A stretch of DNA of 31,150 nt. Source: a virus. Its lineage: Duplodnaviria; Heunggongvirae; Uroviricota; Caudoviricetes; Crassvirales. The DNA is taken from IMG/VR virus record IMGVR_UViG_2974731182_000001; one strand, written 5' to 3'. Below are positions 4,468 to 25,439 of the stretch, one piece after another (within the stretch, counting starts at the first letter, position 1; each line of letters starts with the position of its first letter). The notes below the pieces were generated by a model, which was not told the origin of the DNA, did not search any database, and worked only from the letters and a program-made list of their open reading frames with translations. The position numbers and the translations under genes were made by a program.

Positions 4468-5019
4468 TTATATCATAAAACTATCTACTATTCCCTCCTT
4501 TATATTTTGCTTTAGTTCTTTCTTTATATTTCTATTTAGATGAAAAGTATAGAAAGATTTATTAGTAAAATTAGCTACATTTCTATTATAGTAGATTTTA
4601 AATATTTCTTTTTCTTCCACTTTAATAAGTGTTTTATTCTTATAGGATTCCTCATCTTCATACCATAATTTAAGAGTTCTATCCCAGTCGATAGGGAGAT
4701 TAGTCTTGATTTTATTTCCTTCTAAAACAATATTAGCTTTATATTTTCTTATTTCTAATTTTCCCAATCTACATGGTAACGTAACATCATCACCTTTTGA
4801 TAATAAATCAGCCAGTAATTTATTTACTTTTCTAATGATAGAAAAATACTGAGATTCTGTAAGTATATATTTAGATTCTTTTGGTTTAGTCTTCCTGTAA
4901 AATTTATATCCGTCATAAACTCCATATGAGTTTTTTATTTTATGATGTCTACTTCCTTTTACTTTATTAACTAGACCTCTAAACTCTTCATAGCTTATTA
5001 CCTCTTCTGGATTAGCCAT
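4468..5019 (-). CDS. IHF/HU-like DNA-binding protein of crAss phages
   Basis: Basic 183 aa ORF with an HU/IHF-like core (NKLLADLLSKGDDVTLPCRLGKLEIRK) and IDWDRTLKLW. crAss phages carry IHF homologues at this position in the tail module. Confidence 0.7.
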   Translation of the reverse strand: MANPEEVISYEEFRGLVNKVKGSRHHKIKNSYGVYDGYKFYRKTKPKESKYILTESQYFSIIRKVNKLLADLLSKGDDVTLPCRLGKLEIRKYKANIVLEGNKIKTNLPIDWDRTLKLWYEDEESYKNKTLIKVEEKEIFKIYYNRNVANFTNKSFYTFHLNRNIKKELKQNIKEGIVDSFMI

Positions 5020-5023
5020 AGTA

Positions 5024-5755
5024 TTATTCTAATTGTTTTTGAAAATTACTCTTTGTATTCCTAGCTATAAAAGAAGCCATATCAGATAAATCGTCCTTAG
5101 CATTGTTATCAGGATCAGCTGGTCTGTAAGAAGCTCCCAAGAGCTCTTTAACTGTCAGCTCTACAAGAGGGGAAATAAGGGAATCCTCTATAGGAAATTC
5201 TCTATCTAATATATCGCATGGGATTTTACCTTCTTCATCAGGGCATTGGAGGTCAGAGGCTCTGATGGAATTAAAGAATATCCCAGTAAGTCTTACATGC
5301 TCAAGGTATAGATGTTGCGGATTACAAGACTTAAAATATAAATAGTTGTCAGGACCGATGGAACAATAAATAATGTTCTTTAGAAATTTGTTATACCCTA
5401 CATATCTCATCCTATCTCTACTAACATAAGCTATGTCACCTTGGTAATAATCAACTGGATAAACCTTAGGTGTCCCAATTTGCATAAGAAATGGTATCTT
5501 ATCTTTGCTTCTAAGATAGATTCCCCCCTCACAAGGTTCACCGGATATAGCAGGAACCTGAATTAAATCTAAGCATATAGTCTGATAATTACTGGAAGGC
5601 ATTCGTTTCTTAACACTTGAATATCTTTGCTTAAGTAGAAAGGCCCTATATTTATCAAGAAGAATCATAACATGATCTTCAGTGAATGTAGAATCATCAG
5701 AATGTAGTTTAAGTTCATCCAAAACTAAATAAGTCAACTCTCTAAATGTACTCAT
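5024..5755 (-). CDS. Tail ring protein (crAss R2-like)
   Basis: 243 aa; MSTFRELTYLVLDELK...DSTFTEDHVM...FPIEDSLISPLVELTVKEL pattern; synteny. Confidence 0.65.
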   Translation of the reverse strand: MSTFRELTYLVLDELKLHSDDSTFTEDHVMILLDKYRAFLLKQRYSSVKKRMPSSNYQTICLDLIQVPAISGEPCEGGIYLRSKDKIPFLMQIGTPKVYPVDYYQGDIAYVSRDRMRYVGYNKFLKNIIYCSIGPDNYLYFKSCNPQHLYLEHVRLTGIFFNSIRASDLQCPDEEGKIPCDILDREFPIEDSLISPLVELTVKELLGASYRPADPDNNAKDDLSDMASFIARNTKSNFQKQLE

Positions 5756-9756: not shown

Positions 9757-9905
9757 TTAACCCTGCAGTATAGCAGGAATAATTGACATAGTTCTCGTAG
9801 GATCAAGAACACAGATACCTAAAGTGGCCATTCTATGAATAACTGCCGAGTCCTCATCAAAAGACATATAGGGATTACCCTTCTGTCCTGTATATGGATT
9901 TCTCA
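9757..9905 (-). CDS. Major capsid protein exon 4 (C-terminus: LRNPYTGQKGNPYMSFDEDSAVIHRMATLG...IPAILQG)
   Basis: Follows the terminal G of intron 3. The exon start TGAGAAAT pairs with intron ATTTCTCA (P10). The sequence matches the crAss MCP C-terminus. Confidence 0.85.
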
Positions 9906-10749
9906 CATTTTTTTTTATGTTGCTAATACATCGTTTCCATGTATTATCTCTAACTTTCATTAGAGTTCGGACTATATCTTCATCACTTAATATTAAGTGA
10001 GCAAGGCGTTTCAGTAGTACTTACTACTTACTCCCATCTGGGATAGTCTCTGAACCTTCATATATACTAGTATATATGCTTGGCTGCTGATCATCCAATC
10101 TTTCACATTGTTTCTTTTTATGAATTATATTTTTGAGAGACTGATATTCTATATTAAAAAGTTTAGCTATTTGATTGACTGTATATAATTCTCTTAATTT
10201 CCCTATCTGATTAACTTGGAAATCTGTTAGAATAGTCTTCTTGGGAACTTGTTTACAAATTTTTCTTGAACCAAATTTAAATGAATGAATGACATTTTCT
10301 TTTGGAGTTACCCATTCAAGATTTTCTATTCTGTTATTAGTTCTATTCCCATCTATATGATTAACTATATCTCTATTCTTAGTTCTAGGGATAAATGCTT
10401 TGGCAACTAATCTATGGACTGGTTGAGAAGTCCATGTTCCATCAAGTCTTTGCACAGAGCATCTGTAGTAACCATCTCTATCTTTAGGAAATTCAGTCAA
10501 GATTCTCTCTTTTCTACTCTTATTAGCAGCTTTTCTTATTCTACCAATTGAGCTTACCTCTATGCCTTTATATTCTAGCAGAGGCTTCCATAATTCTTTA
10601 ACTTCCATATTTAAATGTTTGAAGTTTAAAAAGCAGTGAAAGCTCTAAGGAACTTCCAGCAATTAACCTTGTTTTTCTTTACTAGCTCTACTTCTGTTTC
10701 TAGGGGAGAACTTTGGGAGCTGAGAAATGTGTAAAGGCTTACGCCGTTA
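9906..10749 (-). mobile_element. Group I intron 3 of MCP (844 nt) carrying an HNH homing endonuclease
   Basis: P1 UGGGGGU/GCUCCCA with U-G at the splice site; P10 8 bp; P3 CAAGGT/GCCTTG; P4 TTGCTG/CAGCAG; R element TTCAGAGACTA; S element AAGATATAGTCC; terminal G. Confidence 0.9.
10024..10608 (-). CDS. Intron-encoded NUMOD4-HNH homing endonuclease
   Basis: [20 protein letters not shown] (NUMOD4-like), [11 protein letters not shown]...[23 protein letters not shown] (HNH), and a C-terminal HTH-like segment. Confidence 0.9.
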
Positions 10750-11241
10750 ACCCCCATTGATACCCTCTATATTCTGTATCACCTTTAATCTTACACTTAA
10801 AGATATTCGGCTGATCCATTGTTCCAATATACATAATATCATATCTGTAGGAATAAGCCACTCCTCCAAGAGGATGAAGTATCTTATTTCTAACTGGATC
10901 ATCGTACATAGGATCTACATCAATTTTAACTCTGACTCCATTGGGAGCTTTGTACTCAACAAATTGGAATCCTGCAGACAATGCATTTGTATGTAATCTA
11001 GACTGGGTTTTCTCTATTACTCTAGTAGAACTATTATCCAATACAAATTGGGTCCAACCTGAAACTACATTCAATACAGCTTTATGGAATTGGATAGCTC
11101 CTCTTTCACCTGTTTTGATTAAGAAATATCTATCACCAAAATCCAACTTGGATGCAGATAATTCATACAAGGCATCTTCAAGAAGTTTCAAGCTGAAAGT
11201 ATTATAATACATAGTATTAGCTACTTCCATTTGCTCAAATA
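10750..11241 (-). CDS. Major capsid protein exon 3 (LFEQMEVANTMYYN...RGYQWG)
   Basis: 492 nt, phase 1 at both ends; continuous with crAss MCP motifs (KTGERGAIQFH, NGVRVKIDVDPMYDDPVRNK). Confidence 0.9.
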
Positions 11242-12156
11242 CATTATGTTATCATAGTGGCTCTTTATCCACTATTTCTTCATATTACTATGAAGTTCGG
11301 ACTATATATTCATTTAGATTACCACATCTAAATGCAAAACTCTCGTGGAGCATTACTATTGTAATGTTGGGAGATCTCTTCCCAAGTTTTTAGTCTCTTT
11401 AAAGGCTCTAAGTTTAATATTATTTCTCAAGAGTATTCTTCTTATCGTACTCTTATTTTTACCAAACTTTTTCCCTATGTCTACTGTACTATAACCATCT
11501 AAATATAAATCTATTATCATAGACTCCTCAAGTTTATTAGTCTTCTGCAAATCTAAGCCATAAATTATATTAGATCTCTTTAATAGACTAGTAATATTAG
11601 GTACTCCAGTATGTAAAATTTTAGCTATTTTATATGCTGGAATCCCAGAATTGAACATGCTTATTATTAAGTCTTTGTCTAATTCTTTAGTGGTTCTAAT
11701 AACATTACCCCCAATAGACATATTATAACCAAATTTATTATCAGTAGAATTAAAATAAGAAATCCAGTACTTTTCTCTATCATTAAGTTCTTCTATAGTA
11801 CACTCTTCAAGTAATTCTATATAAAAGTTTTCTTCACCATATTTTCTTATCGCTTTACCTATAACATAGTCTTTGTTATTTCTTGCAGCAGATAAATGAT
11901 TTTGAAATCTCAATTTTAAGCTTACTTTAGTCTGTCCTATATAAACCTTATTATTTATAGTATTTCTTATTATATAGATTCTACCATATTTAGTCATAAT
12001 ATAAAGAGTTTCAACCTCTAGTCTCTACACTACTATAAGCTTTTTAGTTCCTATAGTTAGCTCGGTATTATCCATCTCAGGACTTCCACCGACTTAGTTT
12101 TGTTAATTTTAATTTCTTGACTGCTTATGCAGCTAGCTGGCCTATTTGAGCCTTTA
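11242..12156 (-). mobile_element. Group I intron 2 of MCP (915 nt) carrying a GIY-YIG homing endonuclease
   Basis: P1 GCUGGUU/GGCCAGC; P10 CTCAAATA/TATTTGAG; P3 CAAAACT/AGTTTTG; P7 GAGACTA...ATATAGTCC; terminal G at 11242. Confidence 0.9.
11356..11997 (-). CDS. Intron-encoded GIY-YIG homing endonuclease with two C-terminal HTH repeats
   Basis: GRIYIIRNTINNKVYIGQT...R...H, EKYWISYFNS...GYN; tandem HTH-like units (DLIISMFNSGIPAYKIAKIL / SMIIDLYLDGYSTVDIGKKF). Confidence 0.9.
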   Translation of the reverse strand: MTKYGRIYIIRNTINNKVYIGQTKVSLKLRFQNHLSAARNNKDYVIGKAIRKYGEENFYIELLEECTIEELNDREKYWISYFNSTDNKFGYNMSIGGNVIRTTKELDKDLIISMFNSGIPAYKIAKILHTGVPNITSLLKRSNIIYGLDLQKTNKLEESMIIDLYLDGYSTVDIGKKFGKNKSTIRRILLRNNIKLRAFKETKNLGRDLPTLQ

Positions 12157-12976
12157 AACCAGCACCTGTCTTAATCGCATTGCCTGATTTACCGATATTC
12201 ATATACTCCCCATTGGAATTTCTGTTAGAAGTACCAAACGCAAGAGCATTGTTTTTGTATTCAGAGAATTGTTGTTCAACTTCCCAATCTACATTATGCA
12301 TCCACGTGGTAGCTATAGACTTGGTAAGTCCTCCGTTCTCAGTTGCTTTAGTCATAGGTATGCCCACAGCAAGTTTCTTTGTAAGAGCAGAACCTGGAAC
12401 CTTATGTTGAATTCTTATTGTAGACCACTCATTTCTCATGGAAACAGGACTAGTGAATCTAACATCACCTACTTTCCTTGATAATTCCTTCTCTACTGGA
12501 GCGAAATCTACAGAGAATCTTTCCCCTGCAAGGAGTCTCTCTGCAGGGCATCCTGCAGTATTACCTCCCATCAACTCAACTTTGTACACCGCATTAGTTC
12601 CCTCCATTCTGGGGTCACCTAGTATTCTGAATGGATATACTTGGTTCAAATGACCAACAATTACTTCTCCATCAGCAAACCAGTCTTCAGGGAAGACTAA
12701 ATAAAAAGGAGTAGTACCAACACCAACATTAGGGCTTCCTGCAGTAACAGGAGTGCCATTCTCATCTCTTGCCTCTACAAGAGGAATATTTCTCCTTGAA
12801 GAACCTATTACATCCCAGTAATACTCAGTATCATCTTCAAATTCTCTAACTGGGAACTGATTTAGGAATGTGTCAAGGGTTTTACCTCTGTAATAGGCAA
12901 GCAATTGAACCATAAGGTTGGTAGCTTTTTGTGGAGCTAATTGGAAGATAGAACCCAAGTGGTTCTCTTTTGTTAA
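12157..12976 (-). CDS. Major capsid protein exon 2 (LTKENHLGSIFQLAPQKAT...KSGNAIKTGAG)
   Basis: 820 nt; strong match to the recalled crAss-like MCP sequence (YYWDVIGSSRRNIPLVEA, FTSPVSMRNEW). Confidence 0.92.
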
Positions 12977-13256
12977 CAATCTGTTATCCTAAGAGCTTTT
13001 TATCTCTTAGTTCTTACACTTTACCATTGTGTAAGTTCAGCATACATTTTCATACTATTCAGTATGTTGGATACTCGTGGAAGAATTATATTCTATGTGA
13101 TTATAAATACATGCTTTTCTAATCATAGTTTCATCTTCTATGCGTTACACTACCTTTATATATTATTATAAAGGTTAGCTCGGTATTACCCTTTAATTTT
13201 ATTTGGAGGGCTTCACCGATTTTACCCAATTTTACAAGGGCTTAACTTGTGAGTCA
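12977..13256 (-). ncRNA. Group I intron 1 of MCP (280 nt), no endonuclease gene
   Basis: P1 AAGGGU/GCCCUU; P10 GTTAA/TTAAC; P3 TTGGGTA/TATCCAA; P7 GCATA/TATGC; shares TAATACCGAGCTAAC and CCACGAG with intron 2; terminal G. Confidence 0.88.
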
Positions 13257-13310
13257 ACCCTTCCAATGTTGGAAACCTACCATCTGGAATTTTCCTAATT
13301 TTCCTGCCAT
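13257..13310 (-). CDS. Major capsid protein exon 1 (MAGKLGKFQMVGFQHWKG)
   Basis: 18 codons, below the ORF-track cutoff; matches the recalled crAss MCP N-terminus; followed at once by the TGA of the intron. Confidence 0.88.
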
Positions 13311-13364: not shown

Positions 13365-14537
13365 CTACACATCTATTTCCCATCCTTTTCCAATAAAGGA
13401 CTCTGGATCATCTTCAACCCCACTTACAAATTTTAAATTTCCGTCTGATGTTCTTGATGTGTTGTTGAGAGTGTGTTCTAGCTCTCTAAGACCTTTCTTT
13501 ACTTCTTTTCTCACTTTATTCTTTACTAAATTATCCAAATTTTTAAAGCCATCAGTTAGTGTAAAAAGCAACCCAATATTCTTAAGAAATTCAGTTCTAT
13601 TCTCCATTTCATATCTCTGAATAGCTGTGAATAATTCTCCAGTCTCCGGGTCTTTATAAACAGGCTTACTTATATTATCATAAATCTTTCTTCTAGTTAC
13701 CTTGTCTACTTGTAAGTCTCCAAATATTTTAGTATCTTCAAGAATTAATCTTTTTAAATCTTCTGCCTGTTTTTTTCTCTTTTCCACTTCCTTTTGTTCT
13801 TCTTCCTTTGCTTCCTTTATAATATTATCATATTCTGTTTGGAAGAATTCTTTATTACTTGTCAGAGCCTCTTTAGCATCCTCTATATCAGTGCCAGAGC
13901 TAAATGATTTTTGCACTTCTCTTTGAGCTCTTTCAGCACTATACCCTCTATTTATAAAATCAGTATAAATAAGCCGTTTTCTTAATCTTTCCCCTTTATC
14001 ACTCTCATCAGTAATTTCACTCTCTTGAAGAGAGTTAAAGAACTCTAGAGCTTTCTCATATTTCTGAATTTCTGAAATATCCACTCCAGCATTTAGAGCC
14101 TCATCTATTCTCTTCTGTCTGTCATCTAACATAGAGTGAATTTGCTTATCTATAATCTCAGCAAAGTCTTCAGCTGAAGATATTCCTTCAACTTCATTAT
14201 CTTCAAGGGTTTGGAAGATACCTTCTTCTTTCAAGGCTTTGGCAACGGAAGAGTAGAAGTGTTTATTGGGAGAAGCATCCTTATCCTCTTTAGGAGAAGT
14301 ATCTTCCCTATCCCCTGTGTTATCCTCTTTTCCACTACCTACGCTCTCTGGTGAATCAGTAAATAAATTATCTACATCAATAACCTCAGTAGTTTCATTA
14401 TCTTTATCATTTTTATTTTCTTCAGGATTGTCCCCATCGTTATCTTGGGGAACCTCCTGTGTTTCTTCTTCCTCTGAGAATAGATTTTCTATTTCATCTG
14501 ATCCCAGAATATTGTCTAAACTAAGCTCTTCAGTCAT
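13365..14537 (-). CDS. Putative capsid scaffolding protein
   Basis: Very acidic N-terminus and coiled-coil C-terminal half; directly upstream of MCP. Confidence 0.65.
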   Translation of the reverse strand: MTEELSLDNILGSDEIENLFSEEEETQEVPQDNDGDNPEENKNDKDNETTEVIDVDNLFTDSPESVGSGKEDNTGDREDTSPKEDKDASPNKHFYSSVAKALKEEGIFQTLEDNEVEGISSAEDFAEIIDKQIHSMLDDRQKRIDEALNAGVDISEIQKYEKALEFFNSLQESEITDESDKGERLRKRLIYTDFINRGYSAERAQREVQKSFSSGTDIEDAKEALTSNKEFFQTEYDNIIKEAKEEEQKEVEKRKKQAEDLKRLILEDTKIFGDLQVDKVTRRKIYDNISKPVYKDPETGELFTAIQRYEMENRTEFLKNIGLLFTLTDGFKNLDNLVKNKVRKEVKKGLRELEHTLNNTSRTSDGNLKFVSGVEDDPESFIGKGWEIDV

Positions 14538-14656: not shown

Positions 14657-14691
14657 AAAAAAAAAATAAAGGGCAAGATAACCTGCCCTTT
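14657..14691 (-). terminator. Rho-independent terminator
   Basis: AAAGGGCA...TGCCCTTT stem followed by a 10-T run, 4 nt after the stop at 14696. Confidence 0.75.
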
Positions 14692-14695
14692 ATAA

Positions 14696-15328
14696 TTAGT
14701 TTTCCTTGAAATGATTCCACAATTTCGAATTACTCTTACAATCATCATCCTTGAACCAGAATAATATAGCTGCTTCAATGACTTTCTGGTCTATGTCTTC
14801 TCCAAACCATGACTTGAATAATTCACTACAGTTATGATAATGCTCGTTAATAGCTACATACACATCTGCATGAGTAAAAGATTGTGGGATAACTCCTCTA
14901 TATCTTTCACACACTTCTTTAGCCTTAGCCATACTGAATTTTTCACCAACATATTTTCTACCACCTTCATAATGGTACATGTTAGATACCAGATATTTTG
15001 CGTATGATTCATTAAAATGTTCATTTCCAGAGTTTTTCTTCTCTCTAGCCATTTTCATTATTTCATACATATCTTCTTCAGTCAAGCTATCGGACATTCT
15101 GTTAAATCTTTCAAAGAGACCTCCTCTACTTCTCTCCGGGTTAAATGAACTTGATATATCATGATGTCTGTTGGAGTCATAAGCACTTCCATACATTAAA
15201 TGGTAATCATCATTACTAGAGTGATTGTTTCTAGTATGTCCAGACATAAATTCCTTGAATTTATGCATGAATTCTTGTTCACTTATACCTTTACTTCTGA
15301 GATATTCCATCAACATAAGTTCATCCAT
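14696..15328 (-). CDS. Conserved Bacteroidota-phage hypothetical protein
   Basis: 210 aa; low-complexity N-terminal half and a conserved-looking C-terminal domain (HFNESYAKYLVSNM...DVYVAINEHYHN...FWFKDDD). Confidence 0.55.
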   Translation of the reverse strand: MDELMLMEYLRSKGISEQEFMHKFKEFMSGHTRNNHSSNDDYHLMYGSAYDSNRHHDISSSFNPERSRGGLFERFNRMSDSLTEEDMYEIMKMAREKKNSGNEHFNESYAKYLVSNMYHYEGGRKYVGEKFSMAKAKEVCERYRGVIPQSFTHADVYVAINEHYHNCSELFKSWFGEDIDQKVIEAAILFWFKDDDCKSNSKLWNHFKEN

Positions 15329-15332
15329 AATA

Positions 15333-15710
15333 TTATTCTTTAGTAATTAACATCTCTTTGAAACTCTCTAAATCTGTTGTATCAAATACTAACTTCTTAT
15401 CGGTAAGAGGAATACTGAATCCTATAGTTCCTCCTCCTATTTCTACATCTGAGTTATATAATCCTATATAATAAGCTTCCAAGATATTTAGAGACTCTGT
15501 AGCTTCTTCAACACTACTATACTCATGTCTCTCTATAACATCATACTTAAAATTTTTAGGACCATATTTAGCTCTAGCATTATCTATTTTAATTCCTGCG
15601 TACCTTTCTTTTGTCAAGAACGCATGTTTCCTTTCAGATTCATTAATAGTTTTCCCCACATAAATTTTATTGCTAGGGCTAGTGTACTTATAAATTATTC
15701 CTGTAATCAT
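15333..15710 (-). pseudogene. Chimeric ORF: GIY-YIG catalytic domain fused to an unrelated C-terminus
   Basis: MITGIIYKYTSPSNKIYVGKT...EAYYIGLYNS then an abrupt change to DVEIGGGTIGFSIPLTDKKLVFDTTDLESFKEMLITKE. The usual GYN motif and DNA-binding tail are missing. Confidence 0.65.
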
Positions 15711-15856
15711 ATCATTATATTTTATAAGTACAAAGTTAATGAGTGTTATTGGAACAAGCAATAGTATAATTGGAACATTAAAGCTTAGCTGCTGATTGTC
15801 CTTTTAAAGGAGTTTCCAGCAATTAAGGGAATTTATACTGAGCATAATTATAGTTT
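15450..15856 (-). mobile_element. 5' half of a group I intron (truncated)
   Basis: P1 ACUGGGU/GCUCAGU; P4-P5 TTAATTGCTGGAAACTCCTTTAAAAGGACAATCAGCAGC, near-identical to intron 3. I found no P7 (GACTA/TAGTC) or 3' splice site downstream. Confidence 0.75.
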
Positions 15857-15970
15857 ACCCAGTGTCAACCCAGCATTAGCTTTGCCATTGATGTCTTTTC
15901 TGCCATAGCCATACCCATAGTTGCCATCAACAGGAACCTCTTTGATTGTTTGCTTTTCAATAATTTCCAT
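15857..15970 (-). pseudogene. Orphan 5' exon (MEIIEKQTIKEVPVDGNYGYGYGRKDINGKANAGLTLG)
   Basis: 38 codons ending in GGT at the P1 splice site; no matching 3' exon in the window. Confidence 0.65.
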
Positions 15971-16027: not shown

Positions 16028-16035
16028 CAAAGATA
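16028..16035 (-). promoter_or_regulatory. Bacteroidota -7 element TATCTTTG upstream of the 15970 gene
   Basis: The -7 motif is present, but there is no TTG at the N20 spacing. Confidence 0.4.
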
Positions 16036-16075
16036 TAAATAGAATATTGTGAATCCTATTGATGCTAAGGTAAAC

Positions 16076-16110
16076 AAAAAACCCCTCTAAGTTATTATAC
16101 TTAAAGGGGT
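16076..16110 (-). terminator. Rho-independent terminator
   Basis: ACCCCTTTAAG...CTTAGAGGGGT stem followed by TTTTT on the minus strand. Confidence 0.7.
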
Positions 16111-16142
16111 TATATAAAAATAAATTATCTTCATATTACTAA

Positions 16143-16481
16143 CTACTTGTTTACTACTTTATCATGCTTCTTAAATACCTCTAAAATCTTAATGTAGATA
16201 TAAGTTAAAAGGTAAGAATCTACTTCATCATTATCTACTTGCGGGCTATATCCTATAAATTCCCATATAGCATTCTTAACATGCTCTGCCTCATGAACAA
16301 TGCTGGCTTCCTCTTTAGAATTTACTGCTACTATAGAACATCCTTCTGGAAAGATTCTTGTAAAAGCTTTAGGCTCCACATTGCCTCTATGCATGTCCTT
16401 AACCTCTTCCCATTTATCATATATAATTATAAGTAGCCTATAATTAAATATGGGTATATTTATTCTTCTTTTTGTTATCAT
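16143..16481 (-). CDS. Small hypothetical protein with HExxH motif (possible zinc metallopeptidase-like fold)
   Basis: SIVHEAEHV followed by a downstream E (NDEVDSYL); preceded by AGGAGG. Confidence 0.5.
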   Translation of the reverse strand: MITKRRINIPIFNYRLLIIIYDKWEEVKDMHRGNVEPKAFTRIFPEGCSIVAVNSKEEASIVHEAEHVKNAIWEFIGYSPQVDNDEVDSYLLTYIYIKILEVFKKHDKVVNK

Positions 16482-16903
16482 ACTTCCCTCCTAGTTTCAA
16501 TCATATTAATAAATTCTATTATGGACATTAAGCAAGCTGTGATTCTAGCTTGCTGCGCAAGCTGTGATTCTAGCTTACTGCGCAAGCTGTGATTACTTTT
16601 ACTCTTCTGGATGAATTCATCAAGGTCTTTTCTGGACCAACTTAATTCTTTAAATCCTGCTATATGTTCACCTCTAGGTAATTTTCCAGCTCTTACATAG
16701 TTATCAAATGTTGCTCTACTAACATTTAAATATCTACAAGACTCATATTTACTTAATCTTCTTTCCCTATCAGTTAATTCTTTCAGTACAGAAATTAATT
16801 TAATTGTTTCATCTTCCGTCAAATTAGAATTTCCAGCATCAATATTATCTACCAACTTCAGTAAATATTCTTTAATTAGATTAATCATTGCTTCTCCCTC
16901 CAT
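16478..16903 (-). CDS. Excisionase/MerR-like HTH DNA-binding protein with repeat-derived C-terminal extension (probable start 16888)
   Basis: LSKYESCRYLNVSRATFDNYVRAGKLPRG...WSRKDLDEF, a classic HTH_17-type pattern. Confidence 0.7.
   Translation of the reverse strand: MEGEAMINLIKEYLLKLVDNIDAGNSNLTEDETIKLISVLKELTDRERRLSKYESCRYLNVSRATFDNYVRAGKLPRGEHIAGFKELSWSRKDLDEFIQKSKSNHSLRSKLESQLAQQARITACLMSIIEFINMIETRREV
16532..16594. repeat. 25-nt tandem repeat, 2.5 copies
   Basis: gcaagctgtgattctagcttgctgc / gcaagctgtgattctagcttactgc / gcaagctgtgatt; one mismatch between the full copies. Confidence 0.95.
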
Positions 16904-17258
16904 ATTTTAAGTGAAAGTACAATACAAAAAATAAAAATATACCTGCTATTATCATATTAGATAATAACAGGTAGAAATCACTTAAAGGTATTATGATGTA
17001 GTTATCTACCATTGCTATTACTTTGTTTACTACTATATAATGTATAAACATCCTATGATATTTACAAAATTTGTAAATATAACTACTAATATACATTGGA
17101 ATAGTAGTTAATATAGATGTACCAGCAATATATGAAAGTATATCTAAGCTAATATCATAGTACATTAATATATTATCTAGTAAACTAAGGAGAGCGATAA
17201 TTATTGGAACATATTTCACACAGATCAATTCCAACTTATAGATAACTAGCCTTCTCAT
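16881..17258 (-). CDS. Small multi-pass membrane protein
   Basis: 125 aa with 3-4 hydrophobic stretches. Confidence 0.6.
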   Translation of the reverse strand: MRRLVIYKLELICVKYVPIIIALLSLLDNILMYYDISLDILSYIAGTSILTTIPMYISSYIYKFCKYHRMFIHYIVVNKVIAMVDNYIIIPLSDFYLLLSNMIIAGIFLFFVLYFHLKYGGRSND

Positions 17259-19816: not shown

Positions 19817-20689
19817 TTACATCGAATCGGCGAAATTAATCGTCCAATTCTCATCTGTCAGTTTCGCTATGATACCTTCTGTTTCCAGATAAGTTTGTGC
19901 AGTCGTGTTAAATGTCAACGCAGCGGCCGGTAGTCCCAGAGATTTTAATGGAGCTACACCGCTTTCTCCGGCAGCATTGGCGAATCCTCCGAATCGATTC
20001 AAAGTATCTTCATCGATATTCGGGGAATCTGCCAGCGATAGAGCGGTGTGTAAGAAGATAACATCGCCGATAGACGACAGCGCCGAACAGCCTTTAAACA
20101 TATTGACCGCTCTAGTCACGTTCGAAAAATCCCAGTATTCAAGAGATTGCATGGATTGGTTATTATAGAATATAAAGCTACAATCAACAATTTTCGGAAT
20201 ATTTATCTTCGGGAAATGAACGATAGGAATATTTGAAAAAGCGTATGTTGCGGTGATGATATCCGGTAAATCGATATTGCCTATTTCCGTTAGTTTTGAA
20301 CTTTCAAAGGCGTTAAATGCGGTATATGCACTTTGAACGGATAAATTTAAGATTTTAGCTATATTACTTCTCTGAAAAATTCCTTCTAATGACGGCACAT
20401 CTAACGGCTCTATATTTACTTCATCATTTAGACTTGCTGTGCCACGAAAAGCCGCTACAACGTTAGTCATTTTCCCCCAATTTAAGTTTGAAGGTAAAGA
20501 AATTAGAGATTTGCAGGTGTCAAAAGTGAATGACAAATCCGTCACATTCGAAAGGTCGAATATCTCCGGTACTTCCTTGAACGTAGAATATGAGAGTTTA
20601 ATCCCCTCCGCTGCCACGTCGATTTTTTGTTGGGGTGGGAGTCCTCCCCCTCCATTCCATTTATTACCTGTTATTATAATAGTTCCCAT
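19817..20689 (-). CDS. BspA/DUF285-like leucine-rich-repeat protein, putative receptor-binding protein
   Basis: Repeated units (DLSNVTDLSFTFDTCKSL, DFSNVTRAVNMFKGCSALSSI) with a C-terminal LTDENWTI cap. Confidence 0.7.
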   Translation of the reverse strand: MGTIIITGNKWNGGGGLPPQQKIDVAAEGIKLSYSTFKEVPEIFDLSNVTDLSFTFDTCKSLISLPSNLNWGKMTNVVAAFRGTASLNDEVNIEPLDVPSLEGIFQRSNIAKILNLSVQSAYTAFNAFESSKLTEIGNIDLPDIITATYAFSNIPIVHFPKINIPKIVDCSFIFYNNQSMQSLEYWDFSNVTRAVNMFKGCSALSSIGDVIFLHTALSLADSPNIDEDTLNRFGGFANAAGESGVAPLKSLGLPAAALTFNTTAQTYLETEGIIAKLTDENWTINFADSM

Positions 20690-20858
20690 TTTCTATATTA
20701 TATTTTTCTTGTAATTCTAATGCTTCTTGTTCTGGTAATTCCATATATAAATCCAGATTGTGGTCATCTGGAATAAATAATTCCTTTGCTACTATTACCC
20801 CATTTATAAAATCCTTATTTACAAATAGGAATCCTTCTTTTGATACTAAATGTTTCAT
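20664..20858 (-). CDS. Small protein, putative fibre/RBP chaperone
   Basis: 64 aa after the first LRR protein; similar pattern to 19532..19768. Confidence 0.45.
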   Translation of the reverse strand: MKHLVSKEGFLFVNKDFINGVIVAKELFIPDDHNLDLYMELPEQEALELQEKYNIENGNYYNNR

Positions 20859-20859
20859 A

Positions 20860-22275
20860 TCATTTGGTAATTACAACCCAATTTTTATCCGTAGCTATCT
20901 TTATATCTTCTTCCATAAGTTCAGATGTCCCCGGATTATCTACTATGTTAATAGTTCTACTATTTGAATTTGTAAAATCTGGTAACCTATTAAATAATGA
21001 TAATAAGCTATCTTTTTCAAATTTGGCTCTTAATAAATCTATATGAGTACCCCTATAATCAAATGGTGATTCATTGCTGAATTGTAATGAATTTATATAT
21101 GAATCATTGGCAATAAAACACCTCAATTTTATCTTATCATTACCAAAACCCATACTATATTTAAAAAAATTAAATCCAGTACATATTATAGCCTCATCAG
21201 AAAATTCCCCAATATGCTCATTTGGAAAATTTTCTACTTCCTCTAAATTATATAATTGCGCAAAAGAAGATGTTAAATTATTTATATAAGAAAATAATGA
21301 CTGGTCTTTTGGGAAAATTAATCTCCTAAGTCTTATACAACCACTTAACATGTAACCAAGACTCTTCCAATTTTCAGAACTTTGTTCCGGTAAATAAATT
21401 TCTTCTACAATGTCATTACCTTCAAACAAACTTGAAATAGAAGAAAAAGTAAACTTTCTCAAATCATATGACTTCTTTAACAATATTGGAGTATAGGCTC
21501 TTGAAAATAGAGCATCAGCATATGAACCTACTAACTCTGGGTTAAATACATTTATTGGATAACCCGGATAATTGTTTGGAAACGTATTTCCAATAAGTTT
21601 TTCAAACTTTATATCATTGCTATCAAATCTTATCTCTTTTATAAATTTGGAACTCAAATTATCATTCCTGAAAATTATATAGTTACCATGAACTCTTACA
21701 TATTCTACATAGGGAGGATATTGTTGGGAAATATCAGAAATTATCAAATTGGTATACAACCCTTCTCTATTTATTGATACTGCTTTTATAATGGATTTAC
21801 TATAATCTCGATCATTGTTATAGTTTGATAAGTTAAAAGTATTGTAAGTAATATTATCTTTAATGATAGTAATATCTACAAACCAAAATCTTTCACCATT
21901 ACTATCTAACTTACCACTTCCATCAACAAATTTATGATTTACCCTATCTAATCCAGCTTTACTATTTACAAAATCTTCAATAATACCATCACCCCAATCT
22001 ACACGTATATTTTGGTCATAAAACCAAAAAGACACATCATAATCTTCATCTCTCCCCTTATATACAATCATCTGTATATGGTTTTTTGGAGTTTCTTCGA
22101 GACTATCCCATAATGGGTCTAATTTATATTGTCTTTGTACTTCTTGAACAATAGCCGGAACTACTACTTTTTCTTGTACTTGAATCTGAGGTTGTGGACA
22201 GATTATTTCTTCTTCCACAACTGGTATGTTTGGAACTACTACTTTTTCTTGTACTGTAATACAGGAATCTTGCAT
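20860..22275 (-). CDS. BspA/DUF285-like LRR protein, putative receptor-binding protein
   Basis: VDWGDG PKD-like motif, LRR units (SISSLFEGNDIVEEIYLP, SLGYMLSGCIRLRRLIFP) and a C-terminal cap LLSLFNRLPD...INIVDNPG...ATDKNWVV. Confidence 0.7.
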   Translation of the reverse strand: MQDSCITVQEKVVVPNIPVVEEEIICPQPQIQVQEKVVVPAIVQEVQRQYKLDPLWDSLEETPKNHIQMIVYKGRDEDYDVSFWFYDQNIRVDWGDGIIEDFVNSKAGLDRVNHKFVDGSGKLDSNGERFWFVDITIIKDNITYNTFNLSNYNNDRDYSKSIIKAVSINREGLYTNLIISDISQQYPPYVEYVRVHGNYIIFRNDNLSSKFIKEIRFDSNDIKFEKLIGNTFPNNYPGYPINVFNPELVGSYADALFSRAYTPILLKKSYDLRKFTFSSISSLFEGNDIVEEIYLPEQSSENWKSLGYMLSGCIRLRRLIFPKDQSLFSYINNLTSSFAQLYNLEEVENFPNEHIGEFSDEAIICTGFNFFKYSMGFGNDKIKLRCFIANDSYINSLQFSNESPFDYRGTHIDLLRAKFEKDSLLSLFNRLPDFTNSNSRTINIVDNPGTSELMEEDIKIATDKNWVVITK

Positions 22276-22281
22276 ATCTAA

Positions 22282-22611
22282 TTATATTATAATCACATCT
22301 ATTAATTCACTACCTTGAGGAGAACTGTAGTTCCATACCCCATCATTAAAATCACTATCATCCACTTGGTATCTCCTTGTTACAGATAGTTGGCCTCTCT
22401 GAAACGTGTTAGCATTAAATATAATTACAACACGATCATCTTTGACTACATTATTCAATCTGGTTGTTCCATCGAAAGATACTTCATATTTATTACCTTC
22501 GCAATCTTGATAAACAAAGTTAAACTTTACCTCAGAGTTATTTAATGGAGTGCCATCCTCTCCAACAAAATTTACAGAAATTTTAAAATCATCATCATGT
22601 CTAACATTCAT
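22282..22611 (-). CDS. Small beta-sandwich adaptor protein (BppU N-terminal-like); start probably 22611 rather than 22635
   Basis: Beta-rich 109 aa between fibre genes; a start at 22611 avoids overlap with the upstream gene. Confidence 0.45.
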   Translation of the reverse strand: MNVRHDDDFKISVNFVGEDGTPLNNSEVKFNFVYQDCEGNKYEVSFDGTTRLNNVVKDDRVVIIFNANTFQRGQLSVTRRYQVDDSDFNDGVWNYSSPQGSELIDVIII

Positions 22612-22615
22612 AATA

Positions 22616-24367
22616 TTAGTCAATTGAAGGTTCACCCAATAAATAGACCTCTCTATGTGTTTTTGAATAATCTAAATCTCCCTCTTTCGGAGTTGGATTA
22701 TAGAAGAAAGTAGTTTGTATATAATTCGAACTCATATAGGTCATAGCTACACCTGCATATGAAGTAGAATTTATACTCCTTCTAGTTTTATATAAATTTA
22801 CATAAGTTCTATCCTCAAAATTGTCACTTGCATCATCATCCGTTAATATTACTATAGATTTAGACAAATTCTCTAATCTGGCTATAATAGGCATAGAGCT
22901 ATCACTAATCTTTAAAGCATTCTTTATAGCTGTAACATTAGAAGCTCCGTTTAGAGCTTGAATATTAACAAACGACAGTGTCTCTACATTTAACCCACCT
23001 ACTGTAACTCTAACAGTATATTCATTATTATCTTTTGCATAGAAGTCATAATCATATGCCTTACCCATATAAATAAAAGATATTCTATACAAGGTTTTAT
23101 CTGAAGCACCTATAATCTCAGAAAATTCACTTATATTACATTTTATTCTATTCTCACTAGTATCAGCGTTATTAGACACTAGATTAATTACAGGAACAGT
23201 ACTTAATCTAATCAATGAAGTAGTTATCATACGACTAGTAGCACTAGAACTTATACCTAATGCTTTAGCAACATTTGCTTGTGAGTCTCCGGTTTGAAGT
23301 ACTAGAAATCTAGATAAAGGTAATGTAGCAGTCATAGCTTCTATTGAGTACTTTAACTCCGGTAAGCTATATACAGTATAGTCCTGTATCACCCAATCGG
23401 AAGATGCTTTTATCATCCTATGCTCATCATTTACTATATAATGAATGGTATAGGCACTATCATCATAGGTAACTGAAACAAATACGGCACTTTCAGAGGA
23501 TCCGGCTGAAACAGCTACATCTCCAGCTCTAGGAGGAATTAATTCATTACCCCCCACTGGTATAAATGCAGCTCTAAGTTCTGAAGACATGCTATCACCG
23601 TTAATAGTCTTTAATAAGGCAAAATTATATACATGAGTTCTGGATATATTAGAGACAGAGTTGTTATTGATATATATAGTATTTACTCCTCCATAACTCG
23701 TATATATTACCACTTTTCTGCCTGTTCTTAGTTCTATCCCAGAGAATATTACCACTCCTTGGATAGAACCATAAGCTACGTTAGCTACCTTATCCCCTAT
23801 AGAAGGAAACTTAGACATACCTTCAAATCCACCAGATATAGGCACAAAAGCATCACTAACATTATCTCCAAAAGATAGTGCATCAAATAAGGAGATATCA
23901 TATACTACCTTAGAGTCACTATATCCTTCTACAAACTCCTTAACAGCTTTCTGGCTCATTACTTTATCTTCAGAGTTTCCACTAGACTGTACTATATCCA
24001 ATTCAGATAGCATCTGAACCCAATTATCAGGGTTAACCCAAGCACTACTATCTACAGATACACCATTATACTGTATGGTTACCCACTTATTCGGAGTCAA
24101 ATCCTTAGATAAAAATGTTCCTACAAATCCAATCCTTCTATCATATAAGGGAACTGCACTTATAGCCTCTTGAAGAGAGTATGCAGTGGCAGAATAATTG
24201 GCAGAATAATTGGCAGAAATATTTATTGGAAGATTAAGAGCTAACAGCTGATCCAATGTCTTATTCTGACTATTATAAACTGATTGTGTACTTGTTACAG
24301 GATAAACTTCTTCATCTTGGGTTCCTCCAACCAGTTCTTTATCTTTTAATTTTCTTATCACTCCCAT
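22616..24367 (-). CDS. Tail fibre protein with internal domain repeats
   Basis: crAss fibre-type N-terminus (KLKDKELVGG...VYPVTSTQSV), IVQSSGNSEDKVMSQKAV motif, and duplicated domains. Confidence 0.7.
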   Translation of the reverse strand: MGVIRKLKDKELVGGTQDEEVYPVTSTQSVYNSQNKTLDQLLALNLPINISANYSANYSATAYSLQEAISAVPLYDRRIGFVGTFLSKDLTPNKWVTIQYNGVSVDSSAWVNPDNWVQMLSELDIVQSSGNSEDKVMSQKAVKEFVEGYSDSKVVYDISLFDALSFGDNVSDAFVPISGGFEGMSKFPSIGDKVANVAYGSIQGVVIFSGIELRTGRKVVIYTSYGGVNTIYINNNSVSNISRTHVYNFALLKTINGDSMSSELRAAFIPVGGNELIPPRAGDVAVSAGSSESAVFVSVTYDDSAYTIHYIVNDEHRMIKASSDWVIQDYTVYSLPELKYSIEAMTATLPLSRFLVLQTGDSQANVAKALGISSSATSRMITTSLIRLSTVPVINLVSNNADTSENRIKCNISEFSEIIGASDKTLYRISFIYMGKAYDYDFYAKDNNEYTVRVTVGGLNVETLSFVNIQALNGASNVTAIKNALKISDSSMPIIARLENLSKSIVILTDDDASDNFEDRTYVNLYKTRRSINSTSYAGVAMTYMSSNYIQTTFFYNPTPKEGDLDYSKTHREVYLLGEPSID

Positions 24368-24371
24368 AATC

Positions 24372-25439
24372 TTAAAAATCTTCTCCTAATTTACTAACAT
24401 AAACCTCATAAGCAATTCCTTCACTTGTTTTTACGAAGGTAAATTGTACTAATTTGTTTCCACTGCCTGTTAAGCTCAAGGGACCACTTGGAAATATACT
24501 GATATTGGCTCCAGCTGTAAGATTTATAGTCTTAACATCAGGTTTACAAGCCAAATAACTTACTCCTGACATCACACTACTTTTTTCCCTACCATCTGTA
24601 TTGATGGTAACATTTAATGCTTCTGCAGCTGCAGAACACCATACTGTCTGATTAGGATAAAGGGTAACATTAGAATTATCTGTATTTCCATATCTAGTAG
24701 AAGATATAATAGATTGTATATCTGCTAAATCTATAGTAACTGTGCTCCCTCCATTCATAGCTGCTATTATAGCAGCATTATCAGAGAAGCTCACATTAGA
24801 CCCAAATAAAAAGGTTACCCATTGTTCTTCTGGAAAATACTTAATTACTGAAACAGTATTACTATCTGTTACTTTAGATACATTGTATATGTTTCCATAG
24901 CCGTCTGTAAACTGTCTTACAGTTCCTTCCCCACAATTACCCCATAACCTTTGGAGTATCTCTGTTAAAGTATCTGTGTCTTCTAATTGACCATATTTTG
25001 CTGAACTAATTAAATCTGAGTCAATATATAATGGAAATTGATGCTTATCATCAAAATCAATTTCATTTGAAATAGTTTCTCCAGTTAATGCCTTATACTG
25101 ACCAACAGTGTATCCGGCAACAAATCTCCATCTCATTAAGGATTCTTCAGTACTGAAACAAACTACGGTCATATCAGTAGTCTGCTCATCATTGTTCAAA
25201 TCTGCATCTCCATATATAGACAGCAACCAAAGACCCCCAGCCGGATCTACTAATATTCTATAGTAATTATCTACATCCTCTCCTGGGTTATCAGTCTCCT
25301 TCATCATATCCTTCCATACTCCATTTATATTGAATCTAAGTACAGGCTTTCCATTACTAATGGTTATCCATCCAACTTTTGGATCATTCGGAGCAGACTC
25401 TGAAATAATTATGTCCTTGACTCTTACCATTTTATTCAT
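24372..25439 (-). CDS. Head fibre-like protein (gene following the portal)
   Basis: N-terminal IIISESAPNDPKVGWI...RFNINGVWK motif; synteny immediately after the portal gene. Confidence 0.55.
   Translation of the reverse strand: MNKMVRVKDIIISESAPNDPKVGWITISNGKPVLRFNINGVWKDMMKETDNPGEDVDNYYRILVDPAGGLWLLSIYGDADLNNDEQTTDMTVVCFSTEESLMRWRFVAGYTVGQYKALTGETISNEIDFDDKHQFPLYIDSDLISSAKYGQLEDTDTLTEILQRLWGNCGEGTVRQFTDGYGNIYNVSKVTDSNTVSVIKYFPEEQWVTFLFGSNVSFSDNAAIIAAMNGGSTVTIDLADIQSIISSTRYGNTDNSNVTLYPNQTVWCSAAAEALNVTINTDGREKSSVMSGVSYLACKPDVKTINLTAGANISIFPSGPLSLTGSGNKLVQFTFVKTSEGIAYEVYVSKLGEDF

Follow-up and report, generated by a model that had tools for sequence, protein, structure and literature searches.

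A deletion scar in the structural region

The hybrid gene at 15,710–15,333 of the window (the whole 31,150-nucleotide stretch analysed here) is very likely the scar of a real 2,009-bp deletion at a recurrent deletion hotspot of crAss-like phages. The window covers the structural region of such a phage and is read on the minus strand, as are the genes and elements of the locus from U1 to the gp31-like gene. The gene preceding its capsid gene shares 64% identity with its counterpart in Steigviridae cr85_1, to which the phage is nearest, and 54% with crAss001 gp31. This gp31-like gene (13,365..14,537, immediately before the major capsid gene) is probably the scaffold gene and served as a sampling anchor.

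Relative to the intact, intron-bearing allele L081, the window differs by a single deletion of 2,009 bp at 15,450 (L081 6261|8270, with 1 nt of microhomology). There are no mismatches to L081 across the 521 nt before the junction, and none over the 754 nt after it to the intron carriers L086 and L102. In relatives the full element is a group I intron of 921 nt that encodes a 226-aa GIY-YIG endonuclease and has P7 and a terminal G, and the full endonuclease with its intron is present on 109 contigs. Intronless relatives have 1,494 bp between the positions equivalent to window 15,856 and 15,450, which hold the rest of gene A (261 aa in all), gene B (167 aa) and gene C (126 aa). The window has therefore lost the rear of the nuclease, the intron core, exon 2 of gene A, the whole of gene B and 88 of the 126 codons of gene C. 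The original prediction of a single deletion that removed the 3' part of the nuclease, the intron core and the 3' exon was correct in kind, and alignment with related crAss genomes now supplies the size of the missing segment; its extent had been underestimated, since one more whole gene is gone. Comparison with intact relatives likewise shows that, as predicted, the host gene is dead and the chimera is in frame. We considered whether a 10-nt repeat close to the two breakpoints had made the junction and rejected this, the join lying 12 nt beyond the repeat.

These comparisons show a parent with the order lysin gene, U1–U3, gene A (split by the 921-nt intron with its GIY-YIG endonuclease), B, C, D, gp31-like gene and capsid gene. 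The deletion, closed at the single shared nucleotide, fused nuclease codon 87 to gene C codon 89, and loss of the ribozyme core would have ended splicing. Genes A, B and C are dead in the window and D is intact. Gene D (14,696..15,328; 210 aa, DUF7841, a gp58 homologue) is the usual right-hand deletion end-point in relatives. Terminator-like hairpins flank the A–D cassette, with a further one after gene A: the upstream hairpin (16,072..16,111), at the end of the preceding operon, was mapped on L081 at 5600–5631 and is the same in the window, and the bidirectional hairpin at the cassette end (14,660..14,693) is the right limit of deletions mapped in close relatives. By motif match, a promoter-like TAnnTTTG, the Bacteroidetes -7 promoter consensus, stands 5' of gene A at 16,028..16,035.

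Evidence that the junction is real

The chimera occurs on six contigs, and an identical junction is present in assemblies of the Logan runs SRR18842545 and SRR9161558, which match the window at 100% identity across 7,250 and 1,249 nt and may share one donor; a pattern search for the exact 5' junction found no match in viral contigs. An artefact of assembly, one of the options first raised for this locus, or of amplification is now very improbable. Such an artefact would be easier to credit because the evidence for the junction consists of assemblies rather than reads, and because the locus is split over short contigs in SRR9161558, which may mean a mixed population. Against it, two runs that were assembled independently have the same junction, graph mis-joins in k-mer assembly need more than a 1-nt overlap, and no such joins appear in the neighbouring essential block. 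Judged from the assemblies, misassembly of the window junction is thus unlikely. In SRR9161558 (contigs L111 and L024) the assembly is interrupted from the gene C end to mid-gene D, possibly because several alleles coexist in one sample.

Gene A and the remains of its intron

Exon 1 of gene A, a homologue of prototype crAssphage gp61, occupies 15,970–15,857 and comprises 38 of 261 codons, as had been proposed from the sequence. It is followed by the surviving 5' non-coding part of the intron (15,711..15,856, covering P1 and the P4–P6 region), which is 100% identical to intact L081. Folding reproduced the proposed P1 helix (15,837..15,863), in which 15,863–15,857 pairs with 15,843–15,837 and a U.G pair marks the splice site. 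The guide segment at 15,849–15,844 is complementary to the start of exon 2 in intact relatives, and the ATAATT predicted from it is exactly what intronless relatives carry at that point (ATAATC in intron carriers). Both P4 strands, the P and Q elements at 15,824 and 15,797, were found, and of the P4–P5 region described as nearly identical to that of intron 3 only these two strands resemble it; P5 differs, because intron 3 carries its HNH ORF there.

In L081 the 921-nt insert lies between gene A codons 38 and 39, and its removal restores the reading frame seen in intronless alleles. No P7 strand was found in the window between 15,797 and 14,600. The P7 of L081 (6621/6695) and its terminal G, 3' exon border and P10 (6775/6776) all fall within the segment deleted from the window, so the reported absence of P7, terminal G and 3' exon is both confirmed and explained. 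Group I RNA that lacks P7 is unable to splice. With P7 and the terminal G lost, splicing of gene A RNA would be impossible, leaving only the 40-aa peptide that unspliced read-through encodes. In an Rfam covariance-model scan no intron of the window scored, not even those of the capsid gene, which look intact.

The original prediction also considered a split intron spliced in trans from a second half elsewhere in the genome, and called it unlikely. This possibility is now effectively excluded: relatives carry the missing half contiguously, in cis, its loss also took genes B and C, the break lies inside an ORF at one of many unrelated positions, and the window holds no second copy of the missing 2-kb segment. 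What little room it retains comes from the scope of that search, which covered the window and not the rest of the genome.

The remnant was correctly counted as the fourth intron of the region, three others being present in the capsid gene; introns 2 and 3 were found by tblastn against a capsid lacking them, and intron 1 from the interrupted N-terminus. The capsid gene (9,760–13,310) is split by one intron without an ORF, one with a GIY-YIG ORF and one with an HNH ORF. Each of these is missing from some relatives (L083, L104, L112), and L084 has an extra capsid-gene intron with a 220-aa GIY-YIG ORF.

The chimeric reading frame

The chimera starts at 15,710 and its stop at 15,333 lies 4 nt before gene D, as first described. 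Its front (15,450..15,710) is the first 87 of the 226 codons of the intron's GIY-YIG homing endonuclease, and its rear (15,333..15,449), in frame with the nuclease head, is the last 38 codons and stop of gene C, a gp59 homologue. The C-terminus that had been called unrelated is therefore the native end of gene C, codons 89–126, with nuclease codon 87 joined directly to codon 89. The chimera itself has a weak Pfam GIY-YIG match (residues 6–88, E=0.0014, below the cut-off), and the full-length parent matches the homing-endonuclease PHROG 314 at 2e-26. A profile of the endonuclease aligns to I-TevI (1MK0/1LN0) at E about 1e-5, although phmmer with a single endonuclease sequence against the PDB returned no match.

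The GIY and YIG motifs, Arg27 and the catalytic Glu are present in the chimera (Y7, Y17, G19, R27 and E78 are kept). Missing are the C-terminal DNA-binding modules, including NUMOD3 (parent residues 120–138), and the motif E Asn, N93, which is equivalent to I-TevI N90 and I-BmoI N87. N93 belongs to a G91-Y92-N93 segment that hardly varies among 34 relatives and corresponds in alignment to the GYN motif of I-TevI. The picture of a nuclease head that has lost its DNA-recognition tail thus holds for the tail, but the head is itself incomplete, broken at residue 87 before this segment. In I-BmoI, N87 is one of four active-site residues and its mutation abolishes cleavage (PMC2853131); residual activity has been reported for I-TevI N90A (PMC1952068), so slight non-specific nicking by the chimera is possible. 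Because the motif E Asn and the DNA-binding region are missing, the chimera is most likely an inactive by-product that is in frame by chance.

Its retained residues, its open frame, a promoter-like motif upstream and an assembled form in at least two runs would each be expected if the chimera were a functional new protein, with a domesticated nuclease head and the C-terminal hairpin and helix of gene C. The motif in question, a TAnnTTTG inside the intron at 15,731..15,738, 28 nt 5' of the endonuclease ATG, was found by motif match and is possibly a separate promoter, which could now drive the chimera and gene D. We nevertheless consider a functional chimera very unlikely, and with it both the new-protein and the domesticated-nuclease options. 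N93 and the DNA-binding part are gone, and the fusion is private to one near-clonal strain, all carriers seen being identical over the compared stretch. As a test of domestication, we found the fusion not to be conserved across diverged lineages; many alternative tails occur. No fewer than 23 further junctions yield different tails, some of them in frame and others not, for at least 24 chance fusions altogether, so an in-frame join requires no selection on the protein.

Recurrent deletion of the block

Protein searches recovered the same nuclease head with many different tails. Twenty-four nuclease-head junctions, from two endonuclease alleles, could be located (a count that leaves out five short tails without placement); 23 end in gene D or its terminator, and the window junction is the only one that ends in gene C. 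The skew of right ends into D has a p of about 3e-4 even against C and D only. In this phage group the intron site can also hold a second endonuclease allele of the P0054 family, about 79% identical, as at L112 3738–4378.

Deletions also occur in intronless alleles, and in L059, L080, L082, L085, L087 and L101 they leave the whole intron intact; the endonuclease is therefore not their general cause. This bears on an aborted homing event, in which the endonuclease would have cut an intronless genome, repair would have carried over no more than the intron's first 407 nt, and the end would then have been joined by microhomology to a resected downstream site. T4 provides a documented case of one-sided homing in which resection is long and the junctions show microhomology (PMC2988022), and intronless and intron-bearing alleles do coexist here. 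However, the DNA downstream of the window junction has no mismatches to intron carriers as against at least three to intronless alleles, so that aborted homing is an unlikely origin even for this one junction; as a general cause it fails, since many deletions spare the whole intron or miss the insertion site, and others occur in genera in which no intron was seen.

Sampling from anchors outside the block gave deletions in 10 of 14 genomes for the gp31-like gene and in 5 of 10 for the capsid HNH ORF, with one genome shared. The combined figure of about 14 of 23 close relatives is inflated by de-duplication, because the samples collapse similar places and over-represent unique alleles, and the assemblies were de-duplicated and convenience-sampled. 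Full-length C and D are each found on several hundred contigs, which suggests that intact alleles are still the majority. Among more distant relatives, at 64–74% identity, the same deletion pattern recurs. As a control, a 9.3-kb structural block contained no deletion longer than 60 nt in nine genomes, four of which carry a cassette deletion.

Cleanly mapped junctions mostly have 0–6 nt of microhomology. In close relatives left ends reach the lysin gene and right ends stop at the terminator after D; the hotspot is bounded by the lysin gene on one side and by the terminator and promoter of the capsid operon on the other. L031 and L112 have the same junction (L081 6322|8572) in two endonuclease alleles that are 78% identical. 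It is produced by a direct repeat of 11 nt that the endonuclease gene has in common with gene D, and its presence in both alleles suggests that it arose repeatedly. Apart from that junction, carriers of the same junction are 99.7–100% identical, compared with 95–99.8% among intact alleles, and one junction recurs in about 20 similar contigs that may be one person's time series. The pattern is suggestive of deletions that are young and short-lived, although near-identical carriers may be re-assemblies from one person. Dozens of independent junctions, in intron-bearing and intronless genomes of several genera, show that the block is a deletion hotspot. Two separate deletions are present within the block in L041, L064 and L065, in L043 and L067, and in L103, which is consistent with stepwise erosion.

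Conservation, distribution and possible role of genes A–D

Intact copies of A–D appear, from their substitution rates, to be under purifying selection. Their dN/dS is 0.01–0.17 among close relatives (0.06–0.10 for the gp31-like gene) and mostly 0.02–0.15 in more distant pairs, the few higher values having tiny or saturated dS. The same four genes stand in the same order in prototype crAssphage, as gp61-gp60-gp59-gp58, with 62, 49, 35 and 44% identity to A, B, C and D. The cassette is also found in Bacteroides phage BF1-TP2, as fragments in cr107_1, and as a mere remnant (D codons 155–209) in crAss002. In crAss001 (L115 5304–7170) lysin gp30 directly precedes gp31 and the whole block of U1–U3 and A–D is absent. 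The gp31-like gene is present, but A and D found no match, in DAC15, DAC17, the Bcn phages and the isolates 'tikkala' and 'frurule'. Some uncultured genomes also lack the cassette, so there is no clean split between cultured and wild phages. DUF7841 was not found in 300 other genomes of the phylum of G001; G001, probably a bin with phage contigs, has six matches.

No family in Pfam or PHROG was found for A, B or C, and no PDB sequence match for A. The model of A has a hydrophobic helix at 31–51, a Gly-rich linker, one 130-residue helix and a Cys-containing tail. That of D is confident only for about residues 101–190, a compact helical DUF7841 domain; Foldseek returned nothing for it at E<=0.001, VIA gave a highest Z of 4.6, its scattered sigma-region-2-like rows being too weak to build on, and in the Atlas only DUF7841 was found. 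The cassette folds gave no functional match. Tentatively, A–D may form a fibrous module that is anchored in the membrane, includes accessory proteins and can be spared in lytic growth. The more specific role that we prefer, though at less than even odds, is a strongly expressed membrane-anchored coiled-coil module with A as main subunit that serves transmission or colonisation of new hosts.

Repeated young losses beside old purifying selection would fit a cassette with both a cost and a function. We propose that lytic growth does not require A–D and that the cassette probably carries a cost once a gut population is established, so that loss mutants would rise within a person, while purifying selection at another stage would keep the intact copies. 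That the opposing selection lies between long gut residence, where A–D would be costly and independent loss mutants would repeatedly take over, and transmission or establishment in a new host, where it would be needed and loss lineages would die out, with the window as one loss mutant, is a speculative but plausible extension. The main alternative is a neutral deletion bias in dispensable DNA, which would give a similar picture but does not explain the skew of right ends into D. A literature search of incomplete coverage returned no report of recurrent loss of a gp61–58-like cassette and no mention of DUF7841, nor are gp58 or gp61 named in the paper on crAssphage as a phage-plasmid.

Relation to known systems

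In its sequence features the parent is an ordinary phage group I intron with a GIY-YIG homing endonuclease. With the T4 td intron and I-TevI, and with I-BmoI, it shares a P1 with U.G, P4, P7, the terminal G, P10, and a GIY-YIG domain followed by NUMOD3. The window copy differs in having no catalytic RNA core, 3' splice site, motif E Asn or DNA-binding region, and in interrupting a dispensable rather than an essential gene; it is predicted to be neither a working intron nor a source of working endonuclease. The deletion in the T4 nrdB intron leaves splicing intact. There too, in the defunct I-TevIII, the endonuclease was inactivated by a large deletion and an intact version exists in relatives (PMC2988022), and this deleted I-TevIII and illegitimate one-sided homing (PMC2988022) are the nearest precedents. 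The nrdB deletion is internal, whereas that in the window extends beyond the intron across three host genes, and dozens of alternative deletions exist. Prototype crAssphage (Carjivirus communis), of another family (Intestiviridae), has no intron in gp61 and a different neighbourhood; its gp61 is annotated 'putative tail protein', a label without support from our Pfam, PHROG or PDB searches. Major capsid genes with several group I introns, as in the window, have been described in crAss-like phages, mainly in the Delta and Zeta groups, in a text from which the word 'deletion' is absent (Yutin 2021, PMC7886860).

The chimera itself is ordinary; the point of interest is the repeated loss of a conserved module. 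Two crAss families and a non-crAss Bacteroides phage share the conserved cassette, yet it is repeatedly lost in gut populations and is missing from the cultured plaque-forming isolates searched. An intron in a dispensable gene loses the protection given by essential sites, and what a crAss catalogue lists as a 'novel' fusion protein may be a deletion scar. The natural deletion series provides ready-made mutants for studying gene function and the persistence and spread of crAss-like phages.

Variable neighbouring genes

Between the lysin gene and the cassette lie the non-essential genes U1 (125 aa, hydrophobic), U2 (HTH_17) and U3 (112 aa, with an HExxH motif), which together span 16,143..17,258 and are intact in the window and often co-deleted in relatives. 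U3 (16,143–16,481) reads HEAEH at its motif and belongs to phrog_1365; in prototype crAssphage, gp56, annotated as a zincin protease, is located near the cassette of that phage. At the end of the HTH_17 gene a tandem repeat of ~25 nt (16,520–16,590) varies among relatives, and the contigs L023 and L024 both start at it. Near the end of the same gene, L082 and L084 carry an additional 197-aa GIY-YIG ORF (4536–5129). Further away, the tail or receptor-region genes at 19,817–25,439, DUF285-like and leucine-rich-repeat-like, are strongly divergent among close relatives.
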